From: an uncultured Anaerolineales bacterium
Lineage (GTDB): Bacteria > Chloroflexota > Anaerolineae > UBA7937
Direction: 5' to 3'
Assembly (NCBI GenBank): GCA_964383935.1
Contig: CAYLIE010000005.1
Location: forward strand, 24,566-88,565
DNA length: 64,000 nucleotides
Shown: piece by piece, positions 1 through 22,026 of the stretch
How the letters are laid out: every line of letters starts with the position of its first letter
Numbering within the stretch: the stretch's first letter is position 1
Program-made: the position numbers and the translations under genes
Notes under the pieces: model-generated
What the model saw: the letters and a program-made list of their open reading frames with translations, nothing else
Told to the model about the DNA's origin: nothing
Database searches by the model: none

Positions 1-1517
1 ATAGGGTATTCGATCTGGGGCTCTTTCACCCTGCCGAAGTCGTAAAACCCTTCTGGCAACTCCTGAGCATGGGAAAGGCCTCGTTGTAGGAGGATATACC
101 CCTCCTTGGCGGCCAAGATGCCGAACCCTTCCTCGCCGAGAAGGGTATCAAAGAGCCTCTTTTGATCGTTGGGATGGATGGGCCAAGAATCGGCGCTCAC
201 ATCGAAGAAGACGTACTCGGCGTCCTCCACCTTGGGGAACATATAGATCTTCGGCCTCCGGCTCAGATGGGGGTTCAACCTGGACTGGGCGGAGACGATA
301 GCTCCCTCTGGTATCAAGGCCATAAGCTCCTTGGCCAAGCGATGATGGGAGGTGACCCTTGGGATCTGGAAACCCGCGGCCAGGGGAGTGAAACCATGGC
401 CCCGGTGGTAAAGGAGGGTGGAGATGAGTACCAAGGCCGATGCTAGGTATAGAAGGGTTTGCCGCTTCACCCCCAGACGGGGGGATAGGTGCACCACCAA
501 ATAGTCAATCCCCAGGATAGCGGAGAGGACGACAAAAGGGACTAGAGGCGCCGCGTAATGGAACTTCTCCAAGGTGTAGAATTCGGACTTGGTGCTCAAA
601 AGGTTGATGGCCAAGGTGGGGGCAAAGAGGAGGAGAACCTGGGGGGCCAGGAGGGAAAAGAAGGCCACGGGGGCCAAAAGGCCCCACAGGTAGAGAGCCT
701 TATCCTTGATAAAGAGATTGGAGATGACCAGATCCGGCCTAGTCAGAAGGCCCTTCAATATCCCAAAGGGGCCTCCTCCTAAGTAGCCATAGGCCGCAAG
801 GTAGGGCGACTCCCCCTCAGGGTTATAATGAGGGATCATGATATAGACCGCTACGATAAACCAAGTCACCCCCAGGGAGATAGCGGTCAGCCCTACTCGC
901 CAGTCGTGCTGCACAACGAGGGCATATAGCCCCATCATTATCACCAGAAGTGGCATCTCCTCCTTACAAGCCATAACCAAGAAGGAGAAGAGGAAGAACC
1001 ACGGGTACTTCCTCTTCCATAGATAGTAGAAAGCGTAAAGGAGAAGAGGGGCCGCTATAGTGGTAGGGTGAAAGTCGAACATGTTGGCCGCCTCTAGGGC
1101 CGGGAAGAGGAGGTAAACTAGGGGGAAGACCAGGGTAACCAGACTCTCCCCGAACATCTCCTTGGCTAGCCAAAAAAGAGGCAAGGCCCCTAAGGCTACG
1201 ACCAGCGTCTGGAATACGAGAAGCGTCTTGGGGTCGCTATAGAGGAGATAGAGAGGGGAGATGAGAATTAAGATGGGGTCCACATGGTAGGCCAGACGAG
1301 TCCCCTCCTCCCCCCAGTTGGTGAAGGGCAAGAAGCGGCCTCGCAGGCTGTTCCAGACCGCCTGATCCATATTGCCCAGGTCGAAGGCGGTGGTCTGAAA
1401 AGCCTCGTGTTTGAGAATGGCAAGGGTGCTGAAAAGGGCTATATAGAGGAGCACCATCCCCCAAAAGAGACCCCTCACCAGCCGTCTGTGACCCAGCACC
1501 GATGACACCCTATCCAT
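1..1517 (-). CDS. DUF2079-like multi-pass membrane protein (GT-C superfamily), 3'-partial at window edge
   Basis: Not in the ORF track because it runs off the edge. Hand translation from ATG at 1517 (overlaps upstream TAG, SD GAGGTGG): MDRVSSVLGHRRLVRGLFWGMVLLYIALFSTLAILKHEAFQTTAFDLGNMDQAVWNSLRG...HVDPILILISPLY. The same frame reads LPEGFYDFGRVKEPQIEYP at the edge. The FDLG-x-x-DQA-W motif is typical of DUF2079. Confidence 0.8.
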   Translation of the reverse strand, partial: MDRVSSVLGHRRLVRGLFWGMVLLYIALFSTLAILKHEAFQTTAFDLGNMDQAVWNSLRGRFLPFTNWGEEGTRLAYHVDPILILISPLYLLYSDPKTLLVFQTLVVALGALPLFWLAKEMFGESLVTLVFPLVYLLFPALEAANMFDFHPTTIAAPLLLYAFYYLWKRKYPWFFLFSFLVMACKEEMPLLVIMMGLYALVVQHDWRVGLTAISLGVTWFIVAVYIMIPHYNPEGESPYLAAYGYLGGGPFGILKGLLTRPDLVISNLFIKDKALYLWGLLAPVAFFSLLAPQVLLLFAPTLAINLLSTKSEFYTLEKFHYAAPLVPFVVLSAILGIDYLVVHLSPRLGVKRQTLLYLASALVLISTLLYHRGHGFTPLAAGFQIPRVTSHHRLAKELMALIPEGAIVSAQSRLNPHLSRRPKIYMFPKVEDAEYVFFDVSADSWPIHPNDQKRLFDTLLGEEGFGILAAKEGYILLQRGLSHAQELPEGFYDFGRVKEPQIEYP

Positions 1518-4167: not shown

Positions 4168-4192
4168 AAGACCTACTCCCCACCTACGATCT

Positions 4193-4524
4193 CTAAGGTT
4201 TCGATACCATCACCCCCAGCCCCATACGAAAATCGTCTCCCACATCCCAAGGGGGGGGCTCCATCCTCACTATCTCGCCCACTTTCCATCTGCTAGCAGG
4301 ATACCAGAGAGCCTTAATCATCAGCCTAAAGGTAGTTCTTCGATGCCCCTCTTCATCATAGAAGAAAGGGTAATCGTAAAACACCTCTGGCAACTCCTGA
4401 GCATCGGAAAGGCCTCATTGTAGATCGCCAGCCAAAATACGCCGAAACCCTGGGCGATCAAGCCCCCGGCGCGCCCCATAACATCCGACCAACCTCTTCC
4501 CAAGATGCGCCGTGAAGCGTTCAT
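4193..4524 (-). pseudogene. Degenerate relic of the C-terminal part of the DUF2079-like gene
   Basis: 4375-4423 matches 41-89 at 45/49 nt. The codon CGA at 81-83 is TGA at 4415-4417, and there is an upstream frameshift (GFGV in one frame, LPEVFYDY in another). Confidence 0.75.
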
Positions 4525-4528
4525 CTCC

Positions 4529-6901
4529 CTACTCCCCACCCACCGGTATCTCTCCTAGAGAGATGAAATCGCTGATCACTTCTCCGGTTTCGTCCAAGAG
4601 GGGCAACCGTTCCATCGTGGAAAGGAGGTACATACCTGCCAGCAACCGGTACTCTCCCCACGGCGCATCGGGCTTTACTGAAACGGAATGCTCATCGACC
4701 ACCATATCTCCCAGGTCCCAGTAAGAGGTAGGATAGAAGCCATGCCGGGGCTGGCTATCCTCTTGACCCCAAATCAGATCATCATCCCCCGCCAGGTGAA
4801 CGAAGACGGTATAATCCTCATCGATGACCCCCTCGGCTCGCCAGTATAAAGTTAAGGGGAAAGCCTCGCCTGGTCGTACGTTCGACTGAGGCAAGTCATA
4901 TCCTAGAAGGGTAATTACCCCCCCCAGGTTGGCCTCCAGCCGATGACTGGGCTCAGCCACCACACCCCCAGAGAGGTGGATGAAATCGAGGGTCATCTTG
5001 TCCCCCACCACATCCCCTTTTGAGCCAAGGATGGAGAGGCGATCCTGGGTATCGGCCTCATAGAGGCCTAGATCCAGCCGGTATAGACCCGGCTGAGCGC
5101 TCTCGGGCAAGGAGAGCCGATGTCTATCCCGCACCACCTCCTCCGGTGGCCAGAAAGCCGGTGGGTAGAGGGCCTGCAAGGGCTCCTTGTCATCCTGGGC
5201 TACCCGCTCCCCGTCCTCGCCTACCAGATGCAAGAAGACCACGTACTCCTTTTGGGGGTCCAGCGCCTGCCAGAAGAGGGTCGCCTCCAACTCGTCACCG
5301 GGGTCGATCTCGTCGGCAAGTAGCTCATACCCTCGAAGCACCATCCGCCCCTCGAAATCAACCGCCAAAGGCTGACGCACCGCTGGAGCGGGCCGCCGTC
5401 GATACCCCTCGGAAAAGAAGACCATGGTGCCCCGTTCCTCGCAGACCAGATCCATCTGATCCAAAACCAACTCCACGAACTCCACATCATACCGAGATTG
5501 GAACCGCCAGCCATCGACTACCAACCAAAGCCGCTTCCCCTCCTTGAGGAGCCTCTCTAACTGAGTTGTGGTATTGAGGAGCTCAGCTCCCGTCCAGCGG
5601 TCAACCAGACGCCCTTCCTCCTCCATAACATAGAACTCGTAACCCCTCTGGATGGTGTAGTAGTCCGCCCGACCCAGGTAGAGCCGGCTGGCCGGCGGGA
5701 TGATGGTCAAAGCCAAGTCATCTGCTTTCCTACGTTCCTGTACATAGCGAAAGGCCAGGTCGTAGCCCCATTCCTGTCGGTAGGCCTCATCCCAGCCCAC
5801 TAGGGCGGTGAAGAGAACGACCAGAACCACGAGCAGAGGCATAACCCACAAGGATGGCCGAGGTGGCAACCCAGTTGGGAATCCAGAGAGCAATCGAACC
5901 ATCAACTCGTTCAATCCCGCCCCAGCCAGAAGAAAGAAGAGGGGCAACACCATAAAAGCGTAACGGGGATCCCGCCACGTGGCCCCGGTCAAAAAGATGA
6001 GCACCACCATGATGGAACCGAAGATGGCGAGAAGATAGCGGGTAGCCACTCCATGCCGTCGCAGGAGGAAAGGGAGACCCAAGATCAAGAGGATAGTCGC
6101 CGGAAGCCGCCAGGGCTCTAGGAAAAAGGGGGCGAAGGCGCGCAACCCTCCCCACCACTTCTGAGGCAGGAGAAGGAGGGGACGCTCTTCTTGGATGGTT
6201 TCCAGATGGCCCGGCTGACCCACCAGGTTCAGGAGAAAGATAGCCCCTATGGCTACCCCTCCCAAGAGGAAAAGCGATAGGTTCTCCCTTCTGACCAGCC
6301 AACGGAGGCCCCGCTCCAGGCCCAAGGCCAGTGCTAGAGCGGGCCACAACAGCGCCGCCTCAGCGTGAGCGAGGAGAGCGCCTACGAAAAGGGCTAGGCC
6401 CAGATATCGGTAACGGACCTTGTCCTGGGCCACGCCACCTTGGTAGAAAAGATATATAGCCGCCAAGGCCAAAAGTTGCAAAAGAGCGTACATCCGAGCC
6501 CGGCCGCTCCAGATTACAGCCTCGGGATCGGTGGCCAACCAGGCGGCCGCTAGAAGCCCCACTATGGGGGAGTAGAAACCACCACCCATCCGGTAGAGAA
6601 GAAGTATAGCCACCAGACCAAGGGCCACATTAGGGAGCCGAAGCAGGCCCTCCTGGAAACCAAAGAGACGAAGGAAAAGAGCCTCCAGGTAAGTGGAGAG
6701 GAGGCCATGACTATAGAGGTCCCCGGTGGGAAGGAGGGGAAGCCCTCGCTGGAGAACGTTCTTAGCCGCCCAGATGGTCATGAACTCGTCGAAGTAGAGG
6801 CTCACCTTGCCCACATAGAGGAGGCGTAAATAGAGACCCAAAATCACTAGGCCCAAAAGAAGGCAAACGAGGATGATCTGCTTCTTCCCTTCGCCTGACA
6901 T
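4529..6901 (-). CDS. GT-C fold membrane glycosyltransferase with two tandem C-terminal Ig-like domains
   Basis: ORF 4529..6925; likely ATG at 6901 (SD GAGGGG). SLYFDEF acidic loop motif, ARMYALL and DPRY motifs. Two copies of the LRGYEL/LLGYDL...LxW...YxVFxHL domain. Confidence 0.85.
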   Translation of the reverse strand: MSGEGKKQIILVCLLLGLVILGLYLRLLYVGKVSLYFDEFMTIWAAKNVLQRGLPLLPTGDLYSHGLLSTYLEALFLRLFGFQEGLLRLPNVALGLVAILLLYRMGGGFYSPIVGLLAAAWLATDPEAVIWSGRARMYALLQLLALAAIYLFYQGGVAQDKVRYRYLGLALFVGALLAHAEAALLWPALALALGLERGLRWLVRRENLSLFLLGGVAIGAIFLLNLVGQPGHLETIQEERPLLLLPQKWWGGLRAFAPFFLEPWRLPATILLILGLPFLLRRHGVATRYLLAIFGSIMVVLIFLTGATWRDPRYAFMVLPLFFLLAGAGLNELMVRLLSGFPTGLPPRPSLWVMPLLVVLVVLFTALVGWDEAYRQEWGYDLAFRYVQERRKADDLALTIIPPASRLYLGRADYYTIQRGYEFYVMEEEGRLVDRWTGAELLNTTTQLERLLKEGKRLWLVVDGWRFQSRYDVEFVELVLDQMDLVCEERGTMVFFSEGYRRRPAPAVRQPLAVDFEGRMVLRGYELLADEIDPGDELEATLFWQALDPQKEYVVFLHLVGEDGERVAQDDKEPLQALYPPAFWPPEEVVRDRHRLSLPESAQPGLYRLDLGLYEADTQDRLSILGSKGDVVGDKMTLDFIHLSGGVVAEPSHRLEANLGGVITLLGYDLPQSNVRPGEAFPLTLYWRAEGVIDEDYTVFVHLAGDDDLIWGQEDSQPRHGFYPTSYWDLGDMVVDEHSVSVKPDAPWGEYRLLAGMYLLSTMERLPLLDETGEVISDFISLGEIPVGGE

Positions 6902-6911
6902 CTCTATCCCC

Positions 6912-9599
6912 TCACTGGCTGACAACCCGAACCCTCCCTAATAACAGACTATCGCCCACTGCTCGCTCTCCACCATCCGATATGGAAAGACGTTCTCCGC
7001 TCTCTGGATCATAGACCCCCACTACTAGACTATACTCCCCTGGTGGGATCTCTGGCAAAAGAACACCGTGATGATCCTCTACCCTCTCACCAATCCGCCA
7101 ACCGCTTGTGGGCCGCACTCCCCCCATCGGCTGGCCATCATGCTGGGCCAGAATAGAACCATCCTCATCCCAGAGGTGAACGAAGACCTTGTAGTCAGTT
7201 GACACCCCACTTTCCACTTCCCAAAATAGGGTCAAAAGTAGGATGTCCCCTCCCTCCACCTCCTCCCTTGCCAGGTGGTACCCGGTAAGGAGTATCTCTT
7301 CCCCGAATTTGGCGCTGAGCGTCTCTTGACCGACCTCCGTAGAGGCTCCATAGAGCAGTAGACGCACATCTCCATACCAGGCCTCTAGAGCAGGGTAAGC
7401 GTTCTTCTTCAGCCACTCCTCCACATAGTGGCTAGAACCCTCCTCGCCCCAAAAGATAACGTAGATTCTATGGTGCCGGGCCACTATCTCCTCTAAGTTC
7501 TCCGCCACCTCTTCCTCATCAAAGGGCTGACTACTGGGCAACGGGTAAAAGGTGGCTCCCCCCTCATAGTAACGACCGAAGATCTCTATCTGACTCGGGC
7601 TGTCCAAAACGATAGCATCACCTTCCCTCTCTTCGCTTCCTAACTCCCGCATCAGGGCCTGATAGGCCTCTGGATCGTACCCCAGAGCCAACCGCCCCAC
7701 CTTCCGATAGAGGTAAACGATCTCTTTGCTGGGGAGTTCATACCACTGGGCCACTCGGAAGACCTGGTGGAAATAGTCCCCCTGGTCATGGAGCACCTTC
7801 TGAATAACCCTTTGGGTTTCGGCGCTGACTCGAGGGTTGGAGCCATCTTTCATCACCAGATAGTCACAGGCGAAAAGGCGAGGGTAGACCGGGAGGTCGT
7901 CTTTGGCCTGATTGATCTCCCATAGTTCCATCCCCTGGTATCCTCCGTACATAAGATAGTGGAGGGTGCTCTCATTCAGTTGGATCTCTCTGGCCAATAG
8001 CCCCAAGATAACTGGCTTCCCCTCCCGATCTTGGTCTACGAAATCCAAGATCTGTGGGGCTATCCAGTAGCCTGGATCCCTCACCCCTGAACTGGGGCGT
8101 TGAATGTGCACCCCTTGCGCCAAGAGGTTTAATCGCCCCACCCCCGGCACCTGTAGCATCACCTTTTCGTCCACCCAGGCCAGGGCATCGTAGGAGAGGA
8201 CAAAGTATTGAGCCAGGCCGGCCAGGGCAAAAAAGGAGATAAGCGCCACCCTAAGACCAAGACCCCTCAACCGTAGAAGGCCATGGGCGGTAATGATAGC
8301 CACGGGTGGTAGAAGTGCCACATCGAAGCGGGAGTTCATAGTGCGGGAGAAGGTAAATATCAGATAAGGAACAACCAACCAAAGGAGAAGAACCCACGCT
8401 TCTCCCTTCCTCCCCTGCAGCGAAAAGTTCCTTGCGCGGGAAAAGGCCAGGATGAGAAGAGCGATCAGGAAGGCAGCGAAGAAAAGGGGCGAAAGTTGCT
8501 CCCTGATCATAGCCTCTAGGTAGCGAGTATAAGTAGAAACATCCAGAAAGTCCAAACGCTCCCCTTTTAAATTGACCCCGCTATAGGCGGTAAAGAGAAA
8601 GCGGCGGAGGAATCCGATATTGGGTAGGGACCAAATGGAAGCGACGGTTACCCCCAAGGCTAGGGCGCTCAAGAGGTTCACCCCCTGACCAGGCCGTCGG
8701 GTGAGCACAAAAAAGGTGCTAGTCAGGAGAAACAAGGATAAAACGAAAAGCCACTGCCCGACCAGTAATTGTGACACCTGATCCCGATTCGGCAAGTACC
8801 AAGCGAGCGTCAGAAGGAAGGCCACCATGAGGTGAATTAAGGGAGAGGCCAACCAACGATCAACGGCTGAGGAGACCTTCGCTCTTAGTAACCCCCGCCC
8901 AAGATCACGAATGGCGCCCGAACTGAAGATCACGAAGGCTATCGGGCCTCCCGCGAAGGCAATGAAAGGCCATTTGGTGAGCATCCCTAAGCCTACACTC
9001 AAACCGAAGAGCAAAGAGAATTTGCGATTACGGAAGCCATCGCTGCATACCAAGAGATAGATGCTCAGGGCCACCATGGCTGTCAGAGCGTAGTCCGGAT
9101 AGGAGGTGCGAGAGAGGTTGAAGAGGATGGGAAAGAGAGAAACGAAGAAGGTCGCAAGAAGGCCCACCCCCTCATTGTAGATTCGATGACCCAGACCGTA
9201 GATGGCGAGAGTCAAGATGATTACAAAGACGGCGTTGCTCATCAACGCCACATCGGTGGATACTCCAAACAGCCTATAGAAAAGCGCCCCGGTAAGGAAG
9301 GGCAGGAGGGGCCTGTTCTGTTGCCAGGTCATGGCGGTGAAGATAGTTCGAGCATCGATCCGTTCAAGAAGATCGTAGTAGATCCGCATCTTCAGCAGGT
9401 GGGAAGGCCTGTCCCAGCCCAAGATAGTGACGCTGGTAGAGACCCAAAGCCAGTTGTTCACCACTTGGAAGGCCAAGAGGAGTAGGAGGGCTCCCCAATA
9501 GACCCCCACGCTCCGCAACCATCTTCTTACTTTGCCGCTCGAGGCGTTCAGTTCACTCCTCCCTAGCCGTGACTTGCAGAGGGCCGATGAAGATACCAT
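6912..9599 (-). CDS. GT-C fold membrane glycosyltransferase, close paralog of 1510..4167
   Basis: 895 aa ORF; true start probably near 9510-9550. LGWDRPSHL, GVSTDVALMSN, YPDYALTAMVAL and NSRFDVALLP align with the 1510 protein. One C-terminal Ig-like domain. Confidence 0.85.
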   Translation of the reverse strand: MVSSSALCKSRLGRSELNASSGKVRRWLRSVGVYWGALLLLLAFQVVNNWLWVSTSVTILGWDRPSHLLKMRIYYDLLERIDARTIFTAMTWQQNRPLLPFLTGALFYRLFGVSTDVALMSNAVFVIILTLAIYGLGHRIYNEGVGLLATFFVSLFPILFNLSRTSYPDYALTAMVALSIYLLVCSDGFRNRKFSLLFGLSVGLGMLTKWPFIAFAGGPIAFVIFSSGAIRDLGRGLLRAKVSSAVDRWLASPLIHLMVAFLLTLAWYLPNRDQVSQLLVGQWLFVLSLFLLTSTFFVLTRRPGQGVNLLSALALGVTVASIWSLPNIGFLRRFLFTAYSGVNLKGERLDFLDVSTYTRYLEAMIREQLSPLFFAAFLIALLILAFSRARNFSLQGRKGEAWVLLLWLVVPYLIFTFSRTMNSRFDVALLPPVAIITAHGLLRLRGLGLRVALISFFALAGLAQYFVLSYDALAWVDEKVMLQVPGVGRLNLLAQGVHIQRPSSGVRDPGYWIAPQILDFVDQDREGKPVILGLLAREIQLNESTLHYLMYGGYQGMELWEINQAKDDLPVYPRLFACDYLVMKDGSNPRVSAETQRVIQKVLHDQGDYFHQVFRVAQWYELPSKEIVYLYRKVGRLALGYDPEAYQALMRELGSEEREGDAIVLDSPSQIEIFGRYYEGGATFYPLPSSQPFDEEEVAENLEEIVARHHRIYVIFWGEEGSSHYVEEWLKKNAYPALEAWYGDVRLLLYGASTEVGQETLSAKFGEEILLTGYHLAREEVEGGDILLLTLFWEVESGVSTDYKVFVHLWDEDGSILAQHDGQPMGGVRPTSGWRIGERVEDHHGVLLPEIPPGEYSLVVGVYDPESGERLSISDGGERAVGDSLLLGRVRVVSQ

Positions 9600-11721
9600 C
9601 TTCTCCCAGAGAGGGTATGGGCTGGCCGCTCTCCGGGTCCAACATCCCCACCATCAACCGATACTCGCCAGGAGGCAGATCGGGGGGAAGGGAAACCCTG
9701 TGGCGATCCGCCATCACCTCACCTGCCGTCCAAAGGGTGGTGGGATAGAAGCCATCGAAAGGTTGAGCACTCTCCTCCACCCATACCTTTCCCCCCTCAT
9801 CCCTCAGACGGACAAGGACATCATACTTCCTGTCCAAAGGCCTCTCAACCCGCCAATGTAAAGTGAGTTGGAGGTCGCTTCCTGGGAAGAGAGAGGAAGC
9901 CCCTAGGTCGTAGCTCAAAAGGGTCACCACCCCGCCCAAGTCGGCCTCCAGGGTCCGACTGATAGCGGGGGGCTCTCCCCCTAGAAGGAGAGGGGTCTTA
10001 TAGACCCAGGCGTATGCGATGCCGTTGATTCGGGCTACATACTCCGGCTCTAGGGAGCGGAAGAATTCGACCACCAGAGGGTCCGGCCACCCCCTCTGCA
10101 CTTGACTAATGTAGAAGATCACGTAATCGGCCAGCGTCCATACCCCCGTCCAACCCCTCCATTGGAGGGGCATGGTCTCACCCCGAAAATATAAAGCCAC
10201 GCTGCTGGGCCCCCAAGTGGCAACCACCAGATTGGGGGCCTCCTCCTTCCCGTCCAAGTAGCGACCCGCCACATCCAACCCCTCCCCTCCCCCAAAGGCA
10301 AAGAGGCGAGGTGCTAACTCCGCCCCCCCCACCAAGGGGTTAAAGAAGGCCGTATAGTAGGGGGCCAAACGCAACCAGGAGAGGGCTAAGAGGAAGGCCG
10401 CCACCCCAGCCAAGGCTACGTAGGCTCCAAAGGGCCAACGGAACCTCTTGGCTAGCCGAGCCCGCAACCAGGCAAGGAAAGCCACCAAGGTGAGGGCCGC
10501 CAAGATATCCATCACTGGAAAAGCAGGAAGGAAATAGCGGATCAGTTTCTTGCTGCTCAGGGACAACATCACCCCATAAATGATTATATACCCCCAAAGG
10601 AGAGAGAAAGGCTCAAGCAGAGAGGAGCAACCCTCTTGAAGGGAAGAAGATTCTCCCCCTCCTGGCATTAGTCTTCCTCGCCCCATTATCGCCACCCCCA
10701 AGCGATCCTGCGCTCGTTGGCCCTGAGAAGCCTTGAAGGCTAGGAGGCCCAAGATAGCCAAAGACCCCAGGAAGAAAGGGAGGCTCAAGGGGGTCAACTT
10801 GAAGGCGGTGAAGAGGGGGTAGTAGAGCCAGCCAGGGTCATCCACGGGCTGGCCCAGGAAGAAGTTCCCTATCTCATGGGGTTCTAGGACGCCCCAGCGA
10901 GCCACCCGAAACAACTTCCAGATCACAAAGAGGGGCTCTACCCACAAAGCGGGAAAGAGGAGGATGAAGGTGAAAAGCGCCACCCCACACCAGAAGAGGA
11001 AAGCTCCGGCCCATCTCTTAACCTCTCTCTTCTTCCCCAGGAGCCAAAAGTGGCTTCCCAGGGCAAAAGCCACCAAAAGCAGAAGGGAGAGAGCAGGCAG
11101 TTTGGCCAACACCGCTAAGCCTCCACAAATGGCTGAGCCTACGAGATAAGGCTTCCGCCCCTTAACATCTTGCATATAGGCTATAAGGAAGAGTAAGGAT
11201 AAGATCATCCAACTGGCCTGGTGAGCGTCCACGTGCACCACCCTGGAGTGGGCCAGGTAAACAGGGTCCAAGGCCAAAAGCAGACCCCCCAGAAGAGCCG
11301 CCGAGGAGGAGAAGGTGCGCCTCAGGAGCAGGTAAGCAACTACCACTGTAAAGGTGGTGACCAGGACGGTAAAGGTGGCGGCTGCGGGGATCATGGAGAG
11401 TACCTCGTACTGCCCTGTCTCCACCATTCGATAGAAATGGTCCAGGTCGCCGGCCAGAAAGTAGCGAAGCCAGAGAGAGAGCCCGTACCCCCACATGGGG
11501 GAGACCCCGGGATGGTTGATCTGATAGGTGGCCGCCAAATCGCCATGGGCCAGCCCGTAGATGAAGCGGCTGGAGCGCTCCAGCCAACGCATCTCATCGC
11601 CGCTGGCGAAGGCCCCTAACCGCCAAATCCGAGGCAGAAGGGCAGTCAAGAAGAGCAAGGTGGAGATAACCTTCTCTCCCCCAACTTTCCTCTCATCGCC
11701 GAGATAGATATGCCCTTTCAC
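9553..11721 (-). CDS. GT-C fold membrane glycosyltransferase with C-terminal Ig-like domain
   Basis: ORF 9553..11775; likely GTG at 11721. SGDEMRW loop motif, HPGV, AHSRVVHVDA, KKLIRYFLP, GGGEGLD, then a C-terminal LTLHW...PTTLW..GE domain. Confidence 0.85.
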   Translation of the reverse strand: MKGHIYLGDERKVGGEKVISTLLFLTALLPRIWRLGAFASGDEMRWLERSSRFIYGLAHGDLAATYQINHPGVSPMWGYGLSLWLRYFLAGDLDHFYRMVETGQYEVLSMIPAAATFTVLVTTFTVVVAYLLLRRTFSSSAALLGGLLLALDPVYLAHSRVVHVDAHQASWMILSLLFLIAYMQDVKGRKPYLVGSAICGGLAVLAKLPALSLLLLVAFALGSHFWLLGKKREVKRWAGAFLFWCGVALFTFILLFPALWVEPLFVIWKLFRVARWGVLEPHEIGNFFLGQPVDDPGWLYYPLFTAFKLTPLSLPFFLGSLAILGLLAFKASQGQRAQDRLGVAIMGRGRLMPGGGESSSLQEGCSSLLEPFSLLWGYIIIYGVMLSLSSKKLIRYFLPAFPVMDILAALTLVAFLAWLRARLAKRFRWPFGAYVALAGVAAFLLALSWLRLAPYYTAFFNPLVGGAELAPRLFAFGGGEGLDVAGRYLDGKEEAPNLVVATWGPSSVALYFRGETMPLQWRGWTGVWTLADYVIFYISQVQRGWPDPLVVEFFRSLEPEYVARINGIAYAWVYKTPLLLGGEPPAISRTLEADLGGVVTLLSYDLGASSLFPGSDLQLTLHWRVERPLDRKYDVLVRLRDEGGKVWVEESAQPFDGFYPTTLWTAGEVMADRHRVSLPPDLPPGEYRLMVGMLDPESGQPIPSLGEDGIFIGPLQVTAREE

Positions 11722-11740
11722 TTTTTCTTCCCTGTGCCGA

Positions 11741-13279
11741 TCACCCTTTGGTTTGGAAAACGAAGACCCCCTCATCCTGAAAAACTATCATCATCTCCTC
11801 CTCCACCAAAGCCTCAAAATCTTCATCATAACGGGTCTGGAACCTCCCCTCATCAACCACAAACCAGACCCGTGACCCCTCCGAGAGGAGCACCTCTAAC
11901 CCTTCCCTGGAATCGAGCAGCCGACTGCCTACCCAACGATCGATCCACTCACCTCCCCTCTCCCTCATGACGTAGGGTTCATACCCTTTCTGGATGGCGA
12001 AGAAATCGCAACGGGGAAGATAGACCCCACACGCGGCGGGAGCGACCGTCATCACCATATCCTCCTCCCGCCACCTCTCCCTCACATACCTAAAAGCCTG
12101 CTCATAGCCCAACTCTTGTTCAGAGCTCGCTTCTAGGGCGCCTGGCACAGAGAAGAGGGAGAGAGACACCAACGCTATGAGGGTCAACCAACCCTGGCCT
12201 ACCCTGGAAGAGTTTATGCCCCTTCTAGCCCAAGTGGACCTCCCCACCAAGAGAAGCCTGTCCAGAGCCCAGGCCGATACCAGAAACAAGAAAGGCAAGA
12301 GCATAAAGATATACCGCGGATGTTGCCAAGACCTACCTATGAGGGTAGCCACCTCTAAGAGGGCAACGGCCAGGATGAGGTATAGGTACAAAGAAGGCTT
12401 GACCTCCCCTCCCCCTCTCCCCTCGACAACTAAGAAGAATAGCCCCCCCAGGGCGAGGAGGGTGGGAAGAAGGCGGGCCGGCGTGAGGAAGAAAGGTGCC
12501 AAAGGCCTCAGCCCCGCCACCAAGTCCATGGAAGGCCCTAAGGGGGGACGGGAACGGTAGATGGTCTCGAACTGCCCTCCCATGCCGGAAGCGCTATACT
12601 CCTGCAAAAGAAAACGGATTAGCACCCCCAGGCCACAGAGGAGAACAACCAGAGCCACCTCTAATCGCCACGCTCCGCGACGATACAAAAGAAGGAAGAG
12701 ACCCAAGAGCATGGCGGGGAGAAGGAGAGCCACCTCGGCGTGGGAGAAAAGCGCGGCCAAAAAGACGGTGCCCCCTGCCCAGAGGTGGCGAGAACCATCC
12801 TCTTTTAAGCCCGCCTCATAAAAAAGGAAGACCGCCAGGAGGGCTAGAAACTGCTCCCAGGCGTAGGGCCTAGCCCGGGCGGCCCAGAGGATGGCCTCCC
12901 CGTCCAAAGCAAGAAGGAGAGCCGCCATCAAGCCAGCCCGAGGCGCAAAGATCCGCTTTCCCACAAGATAGGCTAGGGGAATGATGAGCAAGCCCGCTAC
13001 TAGGCTGGGGATCCTAGCCATTAAGGGGTCGAGACCGAAGAGATATATAAAGGGGAGATCTAAGTAGGAGAAGAGAAGTCCGGGGCCATAAAAGTTTCCC
13101 GAGGGCAGGATAGGGATTCCCCACCTCCATATCCCCTGAGCAGCAAGTAAGGTGGCGAACTCATCCACAAAGGGGCCCGACCGTAGTAGATAGGAGAAGC
13201 GAAAATAGGAACCCAACAGAAGAACGAGAAGAGGGATGAGTCTTGAAGTGGCTAAGGAACTAAGGAACCTCCTGATCAT
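11741..13279 (-). CDS. GT-C fold membrane glycosyltransferase, paralog of 4529..6901 lacking the Ig-like domains
   Basis: 512 aa. PFVDEF motif, ARPYAW, HPRY. Its IDRWVG/RFQTRY segment matches VDRWTG/RFQSRY in the 4529 protein. Confidence 0.85.
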   Translation of the reverse strand: MIRRFLSSLATSRLIPLLVLLLGSYFRFSYLLRSGPFVDEFATLLAAQGIWRWGIPILPSGNFYGPGLLFSYLDLPFIYLFGLDPLMARIPSLVAGLLIIPLAYLVGKRIFAPRAGLMAALLLALDGEAILWAARARPYAWEQFLALLAVFLFYEAGLKEDGSRHLWAGGTVFLAALFSHAEVALLLPAMLLGLFLLLYRRGAWRLEVALVVLLCGLGVLIRFLLQEYSASGMGGQFETIYRSRPPLGPSMDLVAGLRPLAPFFLTPARLLPTLLALGGLFFLVVEGRGGGEVKPSLYLYLILAVALLEVATLIGRSWQHPRYIFMLLPFLFLVSAWALDRLLLVGRSTWARRGINSSRVGQGWLTLIALVSLSLFSVPGALEASSEQELGYEQAFRYVRERWREEDMVMTVAPAACGVYLPRCDFFAIQKGYEPYVMRERGGEWIDRWVGSRLLDSREGLEVLLSEGSRVWFVVDEGRFQTRYDEDFEALVEEEMMIVFQDEGVFVFQTKG

Positions 13280-16486: not shown

Positions 16487-17326
16487 TCATGGTAAGGGCG
16501 TTACCAGCACATCGTCAAAGACCACATTGGCGCATTTATAGGTCTTAAAGCCCACCGTCCCTTCTAGGAAAACGGTGTCGTTCTTGAGCCCGTCATCCGG
16601 GATGGGGCTATCATCGTAGTCTATGAGCAATTGACCATCGAGATAGCATTTAATCCTAGCCCCCTGTACCTCCACTTTAAGCGTATGCCACTGGCTTTTG
16701 TCGATGGTCATGGATGCGGAAGCCAACGACCGGGGGTTGTTGAAATCCCAAAGGTTCCAGGTATTGACACAAGCCGCCCCCACGCAGTCATCCTCGGTCT
16801 GCATCTGCAAGAGGGAGGCCTCGCTGCCGCTCATTATGAAATAGTAGCCCCCTACATTCCCGGCAGCGGCGTCATCTTCAGAATAGGTCCCCCTGAACCA
16901 GAGGCCAGCCTTCGACCCACTCCTGATGATCACCTTGGCTTCGAAACTGTAGTCGGTCCACTCCTGACTGCCCTCTTGGATGTACATGCTTAAGGCATCG
17001 TGAGCTTCGGCGCCTCCCAGATTCTTGTTATGTCGATAGCCACCACCGACATAGCCCGTCCCCGCCTCCCAGAACCATTGCTCAGATTTCAGCCGCCAAT
17101 AGTTCAGGAAAGGCGTCCAATTATCAGCGTCGGTATCGAAATGATCTTCCAGTGAGGCCGGGCTAGGGGTCGAATACTCCTTCATCACCAGAGGCAAGAA
17201 AACCTCGGTGGTCTCCTGTGCTAAGCTACTGCCGCCTCCTCCCCAAAGAAACAAGACGATTATAGCCATACTTCCCAGAGCCACTGCTACTCCTGGCATC
17301 CCTCTGCCTAGTACCCATTTCCCCAC
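16487..17326 (-). CDS. Secreted DUF1080-like (3-keto-disaccharide hydrolase / concanavalin-like beta-sandwich) protein
   Basis: ORF 16487..17389; likely GTG at 17326 (SD GAGGAGG). Signal peptide ending SSLA-Q, EVFLPLVMKEY motif, WTDYSFEAKV...GLWFR...WHTLKVEVQG..IKCYLDG...GTVGFK..FDDV pattern. Confidence 0.75.
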   Translation of the reverse strand: MGKWVLGRGMPGVAVALGSMAIIVLFLWGGGGSSLAQETTEVFLPLVMKEYSTPSPASLEDHFDTDADNWTPFLNYWRLKSEQWFWEAGTGYVGGGYRHNKNLGGAEAHDALSMYIQEGSQEWTDYSFEAKVIIRSGSKAGLWFRGTYSEDDAAAGNVGGYYFIMSGSEASLLQMQTEDDCVGAACVNTWNLWDFNNPRSLASASMTIDKSQWHTLKVEVQGARIKCYLDGQLLIDYDDSPIPDDGLKNDTVFLEGTVGFKTYKCANVVFDDVLVTPLP

Positions 17327-17401
17327 CCGAACCTCCTCTCCTCTATCTAGGCTAATTCTCCCTCTGGGGTATAAACTGTGGATCTGCAACCAGTGACGGC
17401 C

Positions 17402-17430
17402 ATTGTACCATCGAGAAAAGAGGATGTCAA
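17402..17430 (-). promoter_or_regulatory. sigma70/sigmaA promoter of the DUF1080-like gene
   Basis: TTGACA (17430-17425), 17 nt spacer, TACAAT (17407-17402). Confidence 0.8.
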
Positions 17431-17458
17431 AACAAGAGCCCAGTGTAAACTGATCTCT

Positions 17459-18208
17459 CTAACCCCGCTGGCCCACGATGGTGGCCGGCACTCCACGGGC
17501 TATGCCGTAACCGGGTATATCTTTGGTCACCACCGCACCGGCCGCCACCACCGCGCCCTTCCCTATCGTGACCCCTCCTAAAACGATGGTCGAGGCCCCC
17601 AGCCACACATCCTCCCCGATCTCGATCCTCTCTTCTATCGCTCCCTGGAGGCGGATGGGGACATGGGGGTCGGTGAAGACATGGCTTCCACAGATCAGTT
17701 GGACATCGTTGGCGATGAGAGCATCCTTGCCGATGGTGATACCAGCGTGGCCATAGAGAAGGGCCCTAGGCCCCAGATAGGTGTGTTCGCCCACCACTAC
17801 CTCATGCCCCTCTCCGGCCACGATGATACAATCGCGCGAGGCCCAAGCCTCGTCCCCCAACTCTATCCGACCTTCCAACGAGGAAGCGTCCAGAAGGCTA
17901 TTCTCCCCGATGAAGACGCGATCCCCCAGGAAAACCCTTCGAGGGACTAGAAAGCGGACATTTTGCTCTATGAGGCAGGTCTTCCCCACGCTCCCTAAGA
18001 CGGGCCTATAAACCAAACCCCGCAGGTACGTAGCCCCGATGGTGGGCAAAGGGCCTAAGAGAGAGAGGACAAAACCTTGCCAGAGGAAAGGCAAAAGGGA
18101 AGGCTGACCCGTAACCCTTTGGACGTAACGCCTGAAATTCCCTCCCAACCCTTCGTAGGAGATCCCTTTGGGCGACTTCCTCCTTATACCCCTTTCCTTT
18201 CTGGTCAT
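17459..18208 (-). CDS. Hexapeptide-repeat (LbH) acyltransferase
   Basis: Repeated [IV]G-x-x-x-x hexads; IGEDVWLGASTIVLGGVTIGKGAVVAAGAVVTKDIP...GVPA. Confidence 0.9.
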   Translation of the reverse strand: MTRKERGIRRKSPKGISYEGLGGNFRRYVQRVTGQPSLLPFLWQGFVLSLLGPLPTIGATYLRGLVYRPVLGSVGKTCLIEQNVRFLVPRRVFLGDRVFIGENSLLDASSLEGRIELGDEAWASRDCIIVAGEGHEVVVGEHTYLGPRALLYGHAGITIGKDALIANDVQLICGSHVFTDPHVPIRLQGAIEERIEIGEDVWLGASTIVLGGVTIGKGAVVAAGAVVTKDIPGYGIARGVPATIVGQRG

Positions 18209-18247
18209 CTCCCTACAAGGCCTGACTAACCTTTTGAATAAGGATAC

Positions 18248-19198
18248 CTACTCCAAGATGCGGCGGACGGAATACTCTTCCTCCGGTTGATAGGCGAAAT
18301 TTCTGATCATCTCGCCCAAGAGCCCGATGGAGATCAGTTGCACACCCACGATCATAAAGAGGATCCCCAGGAAGAGCAAGGGCCGCCAACCGATCCCCTG
18401 ACCAGCGAACCAAAGCACCGTTAAGTAGAGACCGATGGCAAACCCTGCGGTAAAGAGAAGAGCACCGATGGTCCCGAAAAGTTGTAATGGCCTCCTAAGA
18501 TAGTAGGTCAGGAAAAGGACCACCAGAAAGTCCACGAAGCCTCGGCCCAAGCGGCTGAGGCCATATTTGGACTGGCCATACCTTCGGGGATGGTGAACTA
18601 CCTCCACCTCCGCCACTCGATAGCCCCGCCAATGGGCGAGGACGGGGATGAAACGGTGGAGCTCTCCGTATATCTTGACCCCTTGGGCCACCTCCCGTCG
18701 ATAGGCCTTGAAGCCGCTGTTCAGGTCATGCAACTTCACCCCAGTGAGGGTGCAGACCACTCCGTTGAAGATACGGGAGGGCAGGGTCTTAGAGAGAGGG
18801 TCCTTGCGATATCGCCGCCAGGCAGAGACCAGGTCATAACCCTCTTCTAAAGGTCCTAGAAGTTTGGGGATCTCGCCAGGGTCGTCCTGAAGATCGGCGT
18901 CTAGGGTAACGATTACCTCACCCCTCGCCTGGTTGAAGCCGGAGGCTAGAGCCGCCGTCTTTCCGAAATTACGCCGGAATTGGATAACCCGCACATGTTC
19001 TTGGCCCTCGGCATGCAACCGCTCTAGAATCTCATAGGAGTTGTCGGTACTTCCATCGTCAATGAATACGATCTCGTACCCCTTATCCAGACCTTCCAGA
19101 GTCTCCCGGAGAGCCTGGTAGAGAGGCTCGATGTTCTCCTCCTCATTAAAGAGGGGCACCACTACAGAGATCTCAAGAGAACAACCTTGTTTAACCAT
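18248..19198 (-). CDS. GT2 polyprenol-phosphate glycosyltransferase, paralog of 15392..16345
   Basis: ORF to 19225; likely ATG at 19198. SVVVPLFNEE, DDGSTD, RRNFGKTAA, LDADLQDDP, GELHRFIP, two C-terminal TMs. Confidence 0.92.
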   Translation of the reverse strand: MVKQGCSLEISVVVPLFNEEENIEPLYQALRETLEGLDKGYEIVFIDDGSTDNSYEILERLHAEGQEHVRVIQFRRNFGKTAALASGFNQARGEVIVTLDADLQDDPGEIPKLLGPLEEGYDLVSAWRRYRKDPLSKTLPSRIFNGVVCTLTGVKLHDLNSGFKAYRREVAQGVKIYGELHRFIPVLAHWRGYRVAEVEVVHHPRRYGQSKYGLSRLGRGFVDFLVVLFLTYYLRRPLQLFGTIGALLFTAGFAIGLYLTVLWFAGQGIGWRPLLFLGILFMIVGVQLISIGLLGEMIRNFAYQPEEEYSVRRILE

Positions 19199-19221
19199 TT
19201 CGACCCCCCGGATAGATACAA

Positions 19222-22026
19222 TCAATACTCCTTCATGATCAAGGACAGGAAGACCACCTCTGGGGCCTGACCCGCGCTGCCCAGGCTTATCTCATCTAGA
19301 TAAGCGTAAGCAGGGGTGGCTCCCTCTTGATGAAGGACGAAAGAGAGATCGACCGTCTGCCCCAGGTAAGCGCTCAGATCTAGGTAGGTATGAGCCCAAT
19401 CTGCAATAGGCGTCGCGCTCCAAACCGAACTGCCGTTCACCCGAACATCAAAGTAATCGCTAGAGTTCGTGGAACTATAGATGTACATAAAGGAGAGGGT
19501 GGGGGAATATATGGTGGTAGGAGTGAGGGTCACCGTTTGCGAGATAGAGGAATTACCCTCCGAACTACCCAGTTTCACCGCGTAAATCCCGGTATGTACC
19601 GTGTCAGTCACTGCAATTGTCATTCCAACTGGTGCCCATTCTCCAGGGAGATCTCCACTCTCAAATTGTCCATTTCTCATCACGTCATCGGGAGGCGGGA
19701 GCCAAAAATCGACCCCTGTGGTTTCATCCTCGACCGCCTCTACTCCATACATGGGGGGCAGAGCACCGAAATTGCTTTGGCTCACCATCACGGTCACAGT
19801 ACCCGTCAAAGGCAAAGTGTACTTTCCCAGGTGGGTGGTATAGACATCAAAGCAACCATAGGGGGAACCGCTCACCTTGGCTACAACCACCGGCAACTCC
19901 CGGTTCCCCCGCACCTGGCCGGAGAATGTGTAAGCGATCAAGGTATAGGTGTCGCCATCTGGAGAGACGGGCCAACTCTCCTCATTGCCCGCTATATCTT
20001 CGGCTCGAGAGCGGAAATAGTAGGTGTGACCCCGTTGGCCCCCGGTGAAGGTCGCCAGGGTGCTCGCAGTGTCCGTGAGCCACCCTGTCCATCCTCCCTC
20101 CCCATCCTTATACTGGATATCATAACTCACAATTCCCGTCCCGTCACCATCCTCACCCCACCAGGAAACAGGGAAATTAACATTTGTCTGGCAGGTCGAA
20201 AGATCATTCACTTGTGAGGAGGGGGGGGCGTCGTCTTCATAGACGTAGGGCCAATCTACCATAGCGTCATAGAAAGCCTGGGCTATCACCTCCATCAAGG
20301 GGCCGGTGGGGTGTATCCCATCAGGGAGATAATAGTCCTCCCAATTCGGATAACCCTCGATAGCCGGCCAGACATCGGCCACCGGTATCCCCTTCATGGG
20401 GGCCAGATAATTCTCTATCCTTTGGTTGACCTTCTCCGTCTCGTACTCCTTATCGGGGTCATCCAAGCGGGGCGGGATGGTGGCTATGACCGGCTTCCCT
20501 CCTCTTTCCTTGACCCGATCTATGATATTGCCCAGGTGGCCGATGATCTCATTACGGGGTCTATTGCTAGATAGATCGTTGGTCCCCTCCATAACTAGCA
20601 CGAACTCCGGACTATAGGTGTTCATCACCTCTATGATCCGAACCTTACCAGCTGTGGTCCGCTCCCCCGGCCATCCGGAGTTGATCACCTCTGAGGGAGC
20701 GATATTAGCATCCAAGAACCCTTCCTCGTAAACGGGATAGGGGGTTAGAGCATAGCCTCCCCAGGTGATACTATCTCCGAAGGCCACATACCGATCTGAG
20801 ACGAGGGTCGCGATCCCCAGCGCACCTTCGGGGAGCGCCCCCTCTAAGAGTCTAAGAGGGGCCTCCACCCGTTGCCCTAAAAGGGCTTCCTCACCAGGGG
20901 CGCTCCTTACCCAGAGGATATAAGGCGTTTCTTCCCCATCCACCATCAGGGCTGGTGAGATAGGGAGCCCCTCCCTCGTTATCTCCCATGGTCTACCCCA
21001 GCCACTACCTTCCCATTGGCTATAGGCTATATATGAGCCCTGCCTATCATAGGCGGTCCAAGCCAGCCGGGGTTCCCCCCTGGGCCCTATAGCCAAGGCT
21101 GGCTCGCCGCCTCCGAGAAGAGAGGAGGGTATGCCTACCAAACTCTCTGAGCTCCAACCGTCCCCCTCCCAACGAGAGTATAGAACCCCGCTCTTCCCAT
21201 CGTACTCTCCACTCCAAGCGGCCCAGGGTCGCCCCCTCCCATCGATGGCTAGGGTGGGCATCAGATCAGAAGAGGAATCATCGGCGCTCACTAACCCTTC
21301 CTCGCTCCAACCCTCACCCTCCCAGCGAGCGTAGAAGATCTCATCGTCTAGACCTTCCCCATCTCCCACCCAAAGCAGCCAAGGCTGGCCATCTCCCCCG
21401 ATCGCCAAATAGGGGCTTCCATCATAAAGATCGGGGGAAGCGTCATCTCTATTCACTCGTTGAGCCTTCTCCCAATCACCCTCCCCCCACCGGCTGAAGA
21501 ATATCTCCTCATCGGTTCCATCGAAGCCGCTCCAAGCCAGCCAAAGGACCCCCTGGGGGTCAACAGCCAAGGAGGGAGAACGGTCCCTGGTCGAGAGGCT
21601 AGTATCTATCTCCCTCTTAGGGCTCCAAGCATCGCCACCTTGACGACTGTAGAAGAGGCCCCCATCCTCGTTCCATACCAGCCAGCCTCCCCCCAAACCA
21701 TCGAAGGCGATGGCCGGGGCATGGCCTCCCGAGGCGGAAGTCACCAATTGGGGCACACTCCAACCTCGGCCATCCCAGAAAGCGAAGTGGATCTCGCTAT
21801 CCACCTCGTCTGGGCCCCACTCCTCCCATACCGCCCAAGGTTTTCCTTCACCATCAAGGGCCACCGACATAGAGACTATGGCTCCTCTTCTGATCTCCTG
21901 GCCTTCTGCTGAGAGCCTTACGGGTCTCAGGGGAAGGAACAGGCTTCCTTCAACCGCTGGCGCCAATAGTAGGAAGGAGATAAGCCCTATAGAGATAAAA
22001 CGCAGCAAACGATGAATGCCTACCAT
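19222..22026 (-). CDS. Secreted multidomain SGNH/GDSL hydrolase (repeat/propeller-like N-terminus, SGNH core, FN3-like and beta-sandwich C-terminus)
   Basis: Signal peptide; repeats of P.LA.D..G.PW..W; SGNH blocks FGDSITWG, GWPG, EGTND and DGIHP; YYFRSRAEDIAGN FN3-like segment; ends VFLSLIMKEY. Confidence 0.8.
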   Translation of the reverse strand: MVGIHRLLRFISIGLISFLLLAPAVEGSLFLPLRPVRLSAEGQEIRRGAIVSMSVALDGEGKPWAVWEEWGPDEVDSEIHFAFWDGRGWSVPQLVTSASGGHAPAIAFDGLGGGWLVWNEDGGLFYSRQGGDAWSPKREIDTSLSTRDRSPSLAVDPQGVLWLAWSGFDGTDEEIFFSRWGEGDWEKAQRVNRDDASPDLYDGSPYLAIGGDGQPWLLWVGDGEGLDDEIFYARWEGEGWSEEGLVSADDSSSDLMPTLAIDGRGRPWAAWSGEYDGKSGVLYSRWEGDGWSSESLVGIPSSLLGGGEPALAIGPRGEPRLAWTAYDRQGSYIAYSQWEGSGWGRPWEITREGLPISPALMVDGEETPYILWVRSAPGEEALLGQRVEAPLRLLEGALPEGALGIATLVSDRYVAFGDSITWGGYALTPYPVYEEGFLDANIAPSEVINSGWPGERTTAGKVRIIEVMNTYSPEFVLVMEGTNDLSSNRPRNEIIGHLGNIIDRVKERGGKPVIATIPPRLDDPDKEYETEKVNQRIENYLAPMKGIPVADVWPAIEGYPNWEDYYLPDGIHPTGPLMEVIAQAFYDAMVDWPYVYEDDAPPSSQVNDLSTCQTNVNFPVSWWGEDGDGTGIVSYDIQYKDGEGGWTGWLTDTASTLATFTGGQRGHTYYFRSRAEDIAGNEESWPVSPDGDTYTLIAYTFSGQVRGNRELPVVVAKVSGSPYGCFDVYTTHLGKYTLPLTGTVTVMVSQSNFGALPPMYGVEAVEDETTGVDFWLPPPDDVMRNGQFESGDLPGEWAPVGMTIAVTDTVHTGIYAVKLGSSEGNSSISQTVTLTPTTIYSPTLSFMYIYSSTNSSDYFDVRVNGSSVWSATPIADWAHTYLDLSAYLGQTVDLSFVLHQEGATPAYAYLDEISLGSAGQAPEVVFLSLIMKEY

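Follow-up and report, generated by a model that had tools for sequence, protein, structure and literature searches.

In a window of 64,000 nucleotides from an uncultured Anaerolineales bacterium (Chloroflexota; assembly GCA_964383935.1, contig CAYLIE010000005.1, positions 24,566 to 88,565), two unrelated secreted proteins, a DUF1080 protein and an SGNH hydrolase with a domain resembling carbohydrate-binding modules (CBM), carry the same short peptide at opposite ends, and both copies are, to judge from their sequence, local and diverged versions of a tag that is very common in Chloroflexota, [IVL]-[YF]-L-P-[LV]-[VI]-x-[RK]-x-[YF], and is catalogued in NCBIfam as the YLP-box. The identity of this motif, its taxonomic restriction, its bias towards protein termini, its conservation and its place outside the predicted domains are documented below, and we lean with moderate confidence towards the view that the YLP-box is an exposed linear peptide read by a shared envelope partner that would retain exported proteins. 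A preliminary description of the window had pointed to a shared motif at opposite ends of these two proteins, and this holds, with coordinates that are right to one codon.

The DUF1080 protein, encoded on the minus strand by the open reading frame (ORF) 16487-17389, reads ...GGGGSSLAQETTEVFLPLVMKEYSTPSPAS... (in a wider stretch, ...LWGGGGSSLAQETTEVFLPLVMKEYSTPSPASLEDHF...) and presents TEVFLPLVMKEY (17174-17209) immediately behind its signal peptide, with EVFLPLVMKEY encoded by 17206-17174; the tag occupies residues 42-51 when the protein is numbered from the GTG at 17326. The SGNH/CBM protein, also encoded on the minus strand (ORF 19222-22026), terminates in ...GSAGQAPEVVFLSLIMKEY-stop (wider stretch ...LGSAGQAPEVVFLSLIMKEY-stop), and its tag, EVVFLSLIMKEY (19225-19260), constitutes the last 9-12 residues and is followed directly by the stop codon (19222-19224). 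The span 19222-19260 originally assigned to the C-terminal tag thus corresponds to EVVFLSLIMKEY plus the stop codon (19260-19222), but the proline that had been included lies one codon outside it, at 19263-19261. The two peptides, YRIYLPLVLRNY and EVFLPLVMKEY, do share the twelve identical nucleotides reported earlier: two copies of ATACTCCTTCAT, and no more, are present in the window (17174-17185 and 19225-19236), where 100 shuffles predict none. Upstream of MKEY the synonymous Leu codons of the two tags differ and the Val of one stands opposite the Ile of the other, indicating that the likeness resides, and was selected, at the protein level and does not derive from a DNA duplication. The core [YF]-L-P-hydrophobic-hydrophobic-x-[RK] appears as F-L-P-L-V-M-K in the N-terminal tag and as F-L-S-L-I-M-K, with Pro replaced by Ser, in the C-terminal one. 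A six-frame scan of the window with the strict motif returned three matches, two of which correspond to the tags described here, each at one end of a real gene, while the third (39309-39332) falls inside a longer minus-strand ORF, on the opposite strand.

The shared tag is not a chance likeness, because its proline is invariant in the DUF1080 homologs and at least 90% conserved in the SGNH homologs. Specifically, 35 homologs of the DUF1080 protein were found, and [IV]FLPLVM[KN]xY is kept behind the signal peptide in 11 complete close orthologs (56-81% identity, within P0002-P0012; P0005, which is N-terminally truncated, was left out of the tag-conservation set), distant homologs at 35-40% identity retain [IV]YLP[FI][VIA], and the tag proline is among only 20 invariant columns in an alignment of 32 homologs. 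For the SGNH protein, 64 homologs were found, and nearly all the full-length ones from Chloroflexota/Anaerolineae, down to ~32% identity, end in the tail LDEVSLGSAxxGGxx[YFW][LM]Px[VIA]x[RK] followed by 0-10 residues; the orthologs terminate in FLPLVMKEY, FLPLIRKEY or YLPLVxR, and the consensus tail is YLPLxxR, with the above conservation of its proline computed over 38 homologs. The tail is absent from the SGNH homologs labelled Aminicenantes and Eisenbacteria and, likewise, from other distant unlabelled ones. The Ser codon of the window copy (19243-19245, FLSLIMKEY) occupies a position that is Pro in 95% of tags; the Ser is common to the close ortholog P0039, and P0038 and P0043 keep Pro.

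The unusual N-terminal place of the DUF1080 tag finds a likely origin in other Anaerolineae, where the DUF1080 gene near the SGNH gene encodes a longer protein with the architecture signal peptide-DUF11-DUF11-tag-DUF11-DUF1080 (L008, L010, L017) or signal peptide-DUF11-tag-DUF1080 (L003, L014). The tags of these longer proteins (VYIPLAMNNW, VFLPILARYW, AFLPLLVRNW, AFLPLAMKGF, IYIPLALQNY) are each followed by a Pro-containing linker. Compared with these architectures, the window lineage lacks the DUF11 domains upstream of the tag, which were lost while the tag itself stayed; the N-terminal place thus derives from an internal one, and the tag has remained under purifying selection ever since. 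The SGNH-tag and DUF1080-tag genes lie within 10 kb of each other in Anaerolineae down to ~33% identity (L001, L003, L008, L010, L014, L017), and a GT2 gene usually lies between the two or adjacent to them; such lasting proximity suggests that the two proteins are functionally linked.

Beyond the window, the distribution of the tag was surveyed with a DNA pattern for YLPLVLRN followed by T, applied to one genome per species (185,579 species), which returned at least 120 loci. The counts for this pattern that follow hold among the matches listed. About 115 of the at least 120 loci are labelled Chloroflexota, where by our own arithmetic ~17 chance matches would be expected over all phyla; the hosts comprise Anaerolineae/Anaerolineales, Thermoflexia/Thermoflexales, Caldilineae, Ardenticatenales-type and some Chloroflexia, and a single Thermoflexia metagenome-assembled genome (MAG) harbours at least 11 loci. 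The stop codon falls no more than 7 residues past RN in 98 of the 116 evaluable instances (84%), with 0 residues after RN in 13, 1 in 50, 2 in 21 and 3 in 9 of them; the other 18 tags (16%) are internal and precede a Pro-rich linker and then, usually, one more domain of 170-290 residues. A signal-peptide-like N-terminus was recognised by a crude detector in 48 of 65 complete tagged ORFs. The passengers vary extremely widely, comprising right-handed beta-helix, PKD, FG-GAP, DUF11 and VWA domains, thrombospondin-type repeats, CBM-like jelly rolls and small proteins of 100 residues. This species-genome scan bears out the earlier impression of a recurrent tag of exported Chloroflexota proteins, which is real, lineage-specific and joined to unrelated passenger domains. 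The position independence that had also been proposed stands in part: conserved N-terminal tags (in the 11 orthologs mentioned above) and internal tags do exist, but the bulk of the instances lies at the extreme C-terminus, and N-terminal tags are rare and, in the DUF1080 family, secondary to the DUF11 loss.

The instances retrieved by the pattern extend to the consensus [YF]-[RK]-[IVL]-Y-L-P-L-V-L-R-N-[YF], and a profile of 88 tags that were not picked by the pattern gives [IVL] at -1, [YF] at 0, L (91%) at +1, P (95%) at +2, [LVFIA] at +3, [VI] at +4, [RK] (73%) at +6 and Y at +8. Moreover, the neighbours of the seed genes contain 21 further C-terminal tags against 2.6 expected, while control loci from Acidobacteriota, Aminicenantes and others contain one against 2.1 expected; a strict 8-residue regular expression matches 135 times in 336,000 residues of Chloroflexota loci and once in 281,000 residues of control loci. 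A scan with the window variant FLPLVMKxY gave 60 matches, of which ~9 are real, all of them in long ORFs of Chloroflexota at N-terminal, internal and C-terminal places; the others come from other phyla, lack the tag context and are mostly short non-coding frames. The real matches to this variant do not suffice in number to demonstrate that the tag co-varies across the lineage. That the tag is a phage feature was discarded, viral contigs having yielded one match. One contig labelled Methylobacillus (L161) encodes a typical beta-helix YLP-box protein and is probably a mis-binned Chloroflexota contig.

The motif is already known to curators as a putative sorting motif, and the preliminary suggestion of an undescribed system therefore fails: NCBIfam covers the motif with two curated models, one of 11 positions (NF050076.1 "sort_motif_YLP") and one of 10 (NF053834.1 "ultrashort_CTERM"), which share the name "YLP-box putative sorting motif-containing protein" and both match YLPLVLRNY tails. 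The window contributes new members, including an unusual N-terminal copy and a C-terminal copy with a Pro-to-Ser change. With the N-terminal tag peptide, NF053834 reaches 13.3 bits, above its cutoff of 10, and NF050076 reaches 12.8 bits, below its cutoff of 15; the full-length window proteins give no match to a YLP-box model at E<=1, probably owing to the HMMER filters on a 10-position model. As to the position implied by the name "ultrashort CTERM", the SGNH tag lies at the extreme C-terminus and the DUF1080 tag behind the signal peptide; a Chloroflexota host and an exported protein hold for both. In sum, the window tags have in common with the YLP-box the Y/F-L-P-L-V-x-R/K core, the phylum and the exported multidomain setting, and differ from the models in that the window lineage uses FLPLVMK-x-Y, has one copy after a signal peptide and has a C-terminal copy with Ser that goes undetected.

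Structural models place both window tags outside the folded domains. AlphaFold2 predictions with family alignments, in which secondary structure was assigned by DSSP, give for the DUF1080 protein (mean predicted local distance difference test, pLDDT, of 81) an undocked coil with pLDDT of ~50 or lower at the tag and a beta-sandwich that begins ~8 residues on, and for the C-terminal fragment of the SGNH protein (mean pLDDT 88) a last strand, AYAYLDEISLG, followed by the tag as a coil with pLDDT of ~72. The jelly roll before the SGNH tag is matched by Foldseek to CBM61, CBM16 and CBM22. On the coil assignment in both models, the idea that the tag belongs to the fold of an adjacent domain was rejected. 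The tag consists of a 7-residue hydrophobic core with basic and aromatic flanks and, in our own reading of the consensus, positions -1, +1, +3 and +5 of an extended tag would form one hydrophobic face.

These observations can be assembled into a mechanism in which a motif of ~10 residues, [IVL]-[YF]-L-P-[LVI]-[VI]-x-[RK]-x-[YFW], carried on a flexible linker by Sec-exported proteins from numerous unrelated families, would act after export as an exposed, strand-prone hydrophobic peptide outside the passenger domains. A shared envelope partner would recognise the tag in trans, and its binding would retain or position the protein at the cell surface; the docking would presumably be non-covalent, for example by beta-strand addition to a receptor. 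Non-covalent docking fits better than a sortase-style reaction that cleaves and attaches the upstream part, because the same tag is conserved whether it lies at the extreme C-terminus, in a linker between domains or at a mature N-terminus. The N-terminal and internal tags are in all likelihood functional, since the complete orthologs keep the tag after the signal peptide and the architecture with flanking DUF11 domains recurs elsewhere. A free carboxylate is not needed for recognition, given the 0-10 residues found past the core and the internal tags, and PDZ-type or tail-specific recognition of a free C-terminus was dismissed on the same variable tail and on the conserved internal and N-terminal tags. 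A more specific version is tentative: the YLP-box would be an ultrashort docking peptide, usable at the C-terminus, the N-terminus and in linkers, that plugs, probably by beta-strand addition, into a putative envelope receptor of filamentous Anaerolineae-type Chloroflexota, providing non-covalent display without a transmembrane segment, a sortase-like enzyme or a folded binding module. For such a docking-peptide system, the clearest natural evidence would come from the N-terminal tags conserved in the DUF1080 subfamily.

Several observations weigh against recognition of the tag by an envelope partner. A docking peptide would have no need of so strong a bias towards the extreme C-terminus, which recalls cleaved sorting signals. 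A search for a partner or enzyme, in which 624 ORFs from 117 YLP-box loci were clustered, retrieved no recurrent untagged enzyme or receptor family, the exceptions being a large regulator in 5 loci and the partner of a group of small GGFW proteins described below. Moreover, the C-terminal window tag, with its pLDDT of ~72, may pack to some extent on the CBM-like domain and, having lost its proline, may be weakened or degenerating; its peptide FLSLIMKEY matches neither NF050076 nor NF053834. Lastly, full-text literature searches found no paper and no experiment on the motif.

The first of these points is also the reason why a cleaved sorting signal, although doubtful in our estimation, stays a serious rival. 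A protease or transpeptidase, in the manner of sortase, exosortase or PorU, would cut at or past the YLP-box and attach the upstream protein to the wall or a glycan, or else free a downstream pro-domain. This would agree with the short, variable tails of the C-terminal tags, with the many tagged proteins per genome (the Thermoflexia MAG has its 11 or more loci with one exact 8-mer) and with the name chosen by the NCBIfam curators, and the 170-290 residues after internal tags could be a removable C-terminal piece. Yet no transmembrane segment or basic tail would hold the substrate at the membrane, no candidate enzyme recurs beside the tagged genes in the 117 loci and, at the conserved N-terminal tags of DUF1080 proteins, cleavage would leave ~15 residues attached and discard the enzyme domain. 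The lack of a transmembrane segment or basic tail after the tag also means that no tripartite signal of the sortase/exosortase type is present, in agreement with the preliminary description, which had set aside a transmembrane anchor, a sortase signal and a PEP-CTERM signal.

Alternatively, the 7-residue core, together with Arg/Lys and Tyr, might lodge in the outer leaflet of the cytoplasmic membrane, or in another lipid layer, and tether the protein as an interfacial anchor. The [IVL][YF]LP[LV][VI] core with basic residues at -2 and +6 and aromatic ones at -3 and +8 would suit this role, for which either end of a protein would serve; an anchor of this kind is nevertheless improbable, as the core is too short, its near-invariant central Pro breaks a helix, the near fixation of L and P in the profile far exceeds the specificity that a generic hydrophobic anchor would call for, and tags also lie between folded domains. 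The genomic setting of the window raises another interpretation, for the two tagged genes lie midway in an extended envelope-glycan locus whose genes run in one direction (1510-25285, minus strand), with five tandem GT-C genes of the PMT_2 type (1510-13279), a methyltransferase, a GT4 gene, two ArnC/AglJ-like polyprenyl-phosphate-sugar GT2 genes, a hexapeptide acetyltransferase, a type I phosphodiesterase and a Wzx-like flippase. The tag could then be a recognition element for the GT-C glycosyltransferases, as had been proposed in the preliminary description, marking an adjacent Ser/Thr/Pro linker for glycosylation, and P/S/T-rich linkers often do follow tags. We regard this as very improbable and reject the link to GT-C on its distribution: relatives of the window GT-C proteins adjoin only one of the 117 YLP-box loci, most tags close their protein and have no linker behind them, and the surroundings of tagged genes are many and unrelated. 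The tag thus characterises exported proteins in general and is no locus-specific signal. Lastly, the resemblance might have no common function, arising by chance or from the edge strand of an adjacent domain, since the motif is short and the C-terminal tag is modelled at moderate AlphaFold confidence; this reading has a negligible probability, with the two copies of the 12-mer against none in shuffles, the deep conservation in two unrelated families and the DSSP coil of both tags speaking against it, and it is already refuted by the dozens of unrelated folds that carry the motif only in Chloroflexota, by the terminal bias and by the excess of further tags in neighbouring genes.

The remaining features of the two genes also lie on the minus strand. 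In the DUF1080 gene, the predicted start and signal peptide, MGKWVLGRGMPGVAVALGSMAIIVLFLWGGGGSSLAQ, extend over 17216-17326, with start and cleavage site deduced from the sequence; the start is likely the GTG at 17326, with a GGAGG 6 nt upstream, as indicated by the sequence and the ortholog N-termini, which begin MGKRVLSRGIPG... (MGKRVLSRG). This start (site 17324-17337) differs from the TTG at 17389 chosen by the ORF finder and from the ATG of the database protein P0001. The tag, assigned from its sequence, ortholog conservation, NF053834 score and AlphaFold coil, is connected by a Pro/Ser/Thr linker, STPSPAS (17153-17173), whose length and sequence vary in orthologs while the tag is fixed, to the passenger (16487-17152), a DUF1080/3-keto-disaccharide-hydrolase-like beta-sandwich (PF06439, E=8.9e-13; modelled as a sandwich from ~residue 50). 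The SGNH protein has 934 residues, and its body (19261-22026) comprises a signal peptide, BNR-like repeats, an SGNH/GDSL hydrolase (PF13472, 3.1e-23), fn3-like modules and the terminal CBM-like jelly roll that precedes the tag, the latter being assigned from its sequence, ortholog tails and AlphaFold coil; weak matches to NTTRR-F1 and choice-of-anchor-J (NF038128) were also recorded. Both proteins have signal-peptide-like N-termini, and the closest loci are found in Anaerolineae MAGs at 80-85% identity.

Some further observations concern the YLP-box loci at large. The CBM-like jelly roll (NG[DQS]FE.G...) stands before the tag in the window SGNH protein (19225-19800) and after it elsewhere, in a tag-linker-CBM order (L164, L187, L188, L216, L247, L249), and internal tags may arise by addition of a C-terminal CBM to a tagged protein. 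Small YLP-tagged proteins of 95-130 residues with a GGGYxLxGGFWxG motif (L107, L120, L128, L129, L135, L154, L166, L169, L189, L197) always adjoin a signal-peptide protein that begins GTAFTYQGQL, contains YadA-head-like repeats and has as its C-terminus either a transmembrane segment followed by RRKGGG or a tail like that of endosialidase chaperones; the small GGFW protein has a weak NCBIfam match to the pilus protein PamT of the Candidate Phyla Radiation type (E=0.0023). In locus L093, a 984-residue protein (1321-4272) encoded beside a YLP-tagged gene has a module of ~115 residues in common with four GT-C proteins of the window (30-39% identity), which may be the extracytoplasmic "Ig-like module" of the preliminary description.

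Chloroflexota are abundant filamentous bacteria of sludge, sediments and hot springs, and to our knowledge their surface proteins are poorly understood; literature searches found no protein-anchoring mechanism for them. A partner of the YLP-box, once identified, would explain how the envelope or sheath is decorated, many tagged exported proteins being encoded per genome, and the YLP-box would offer a very small tag for surface display. The window provides a tag that persists at a mature N-terminus, a case that narrows the possible mechanisms and speaks against sortase-like cleavage. It also provides a conserved tagged pair, in which an SGNH esterase is joined by a lectin-like DUF1080 protein, within an envelope-glycan locus of the GT-C/GT2 type.

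Among known systems, the tripartite C-terminal signals (LPXTG/sortase, PEP-CTERM/exosortase, PGF-CTERM/archaeosortase, GlyGly-CTERM/rhombosortase and MYXO-CTERM) resemble the YLP-box in being short, lineage-restricted, C-terminal and attached to many unrelated exported proteins per genome, and some YLP-box passengers are of the "choice-of-anchor" type (NF041518, besides the weak NF038128 match in the window). In contrast to them, the YLP-box has no transmembrane helix or basic tail, the protein simply ending there, and is also found at internal and N-terminal places; neighbour clustering over the 117 loci found no cognate sorting enzyme for it, and we know of none. Individually, an LPXTG/sortase signal was rejected for the window tags on the lack of T-G and of a transmembrane segment, with the stop directly past MKEY, and a PEP-CTERM/exosortase-type signal on the lack of a transmembrane helix or basic cluster past the tag and of an NCBIfam model match. 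The C-terminal domain of the type IX secretion system is a folded beta-sandwich of ~70-100 residues; the tag, a coil of 10-12 residues behind a CBM-like domain, matches no model of such a C-terminal domain, which was thus also discarded. Donor-strand peptides, namely the N-terminal extensions of chaperone-usher pili and the C-terminal strands of type V pili, are, like the YLP-box, strand-prone hydrophobic peptides of ~10 residues that a flexible linker ties to one end of a protein, and the hydrophobic periodicity of the YLP-box is compatible with donor-strand complementation; the resemblance is a lead only, as the sequences are unrelated, the passengers comprise enzymes and lectin-like domains in place of pilins, and the acceptor groove is putative. 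Lastly, the SLH, LysM, CWB2 and GW wall-binding modules of monoderm bacteria play the same role as that proposed for the YLP-box, non-covalent retention in the envelope, but they do so as folded, glycan-binding domains of 40-80 residues, whereas the YLP-box is a linear peptide of 10 residues.

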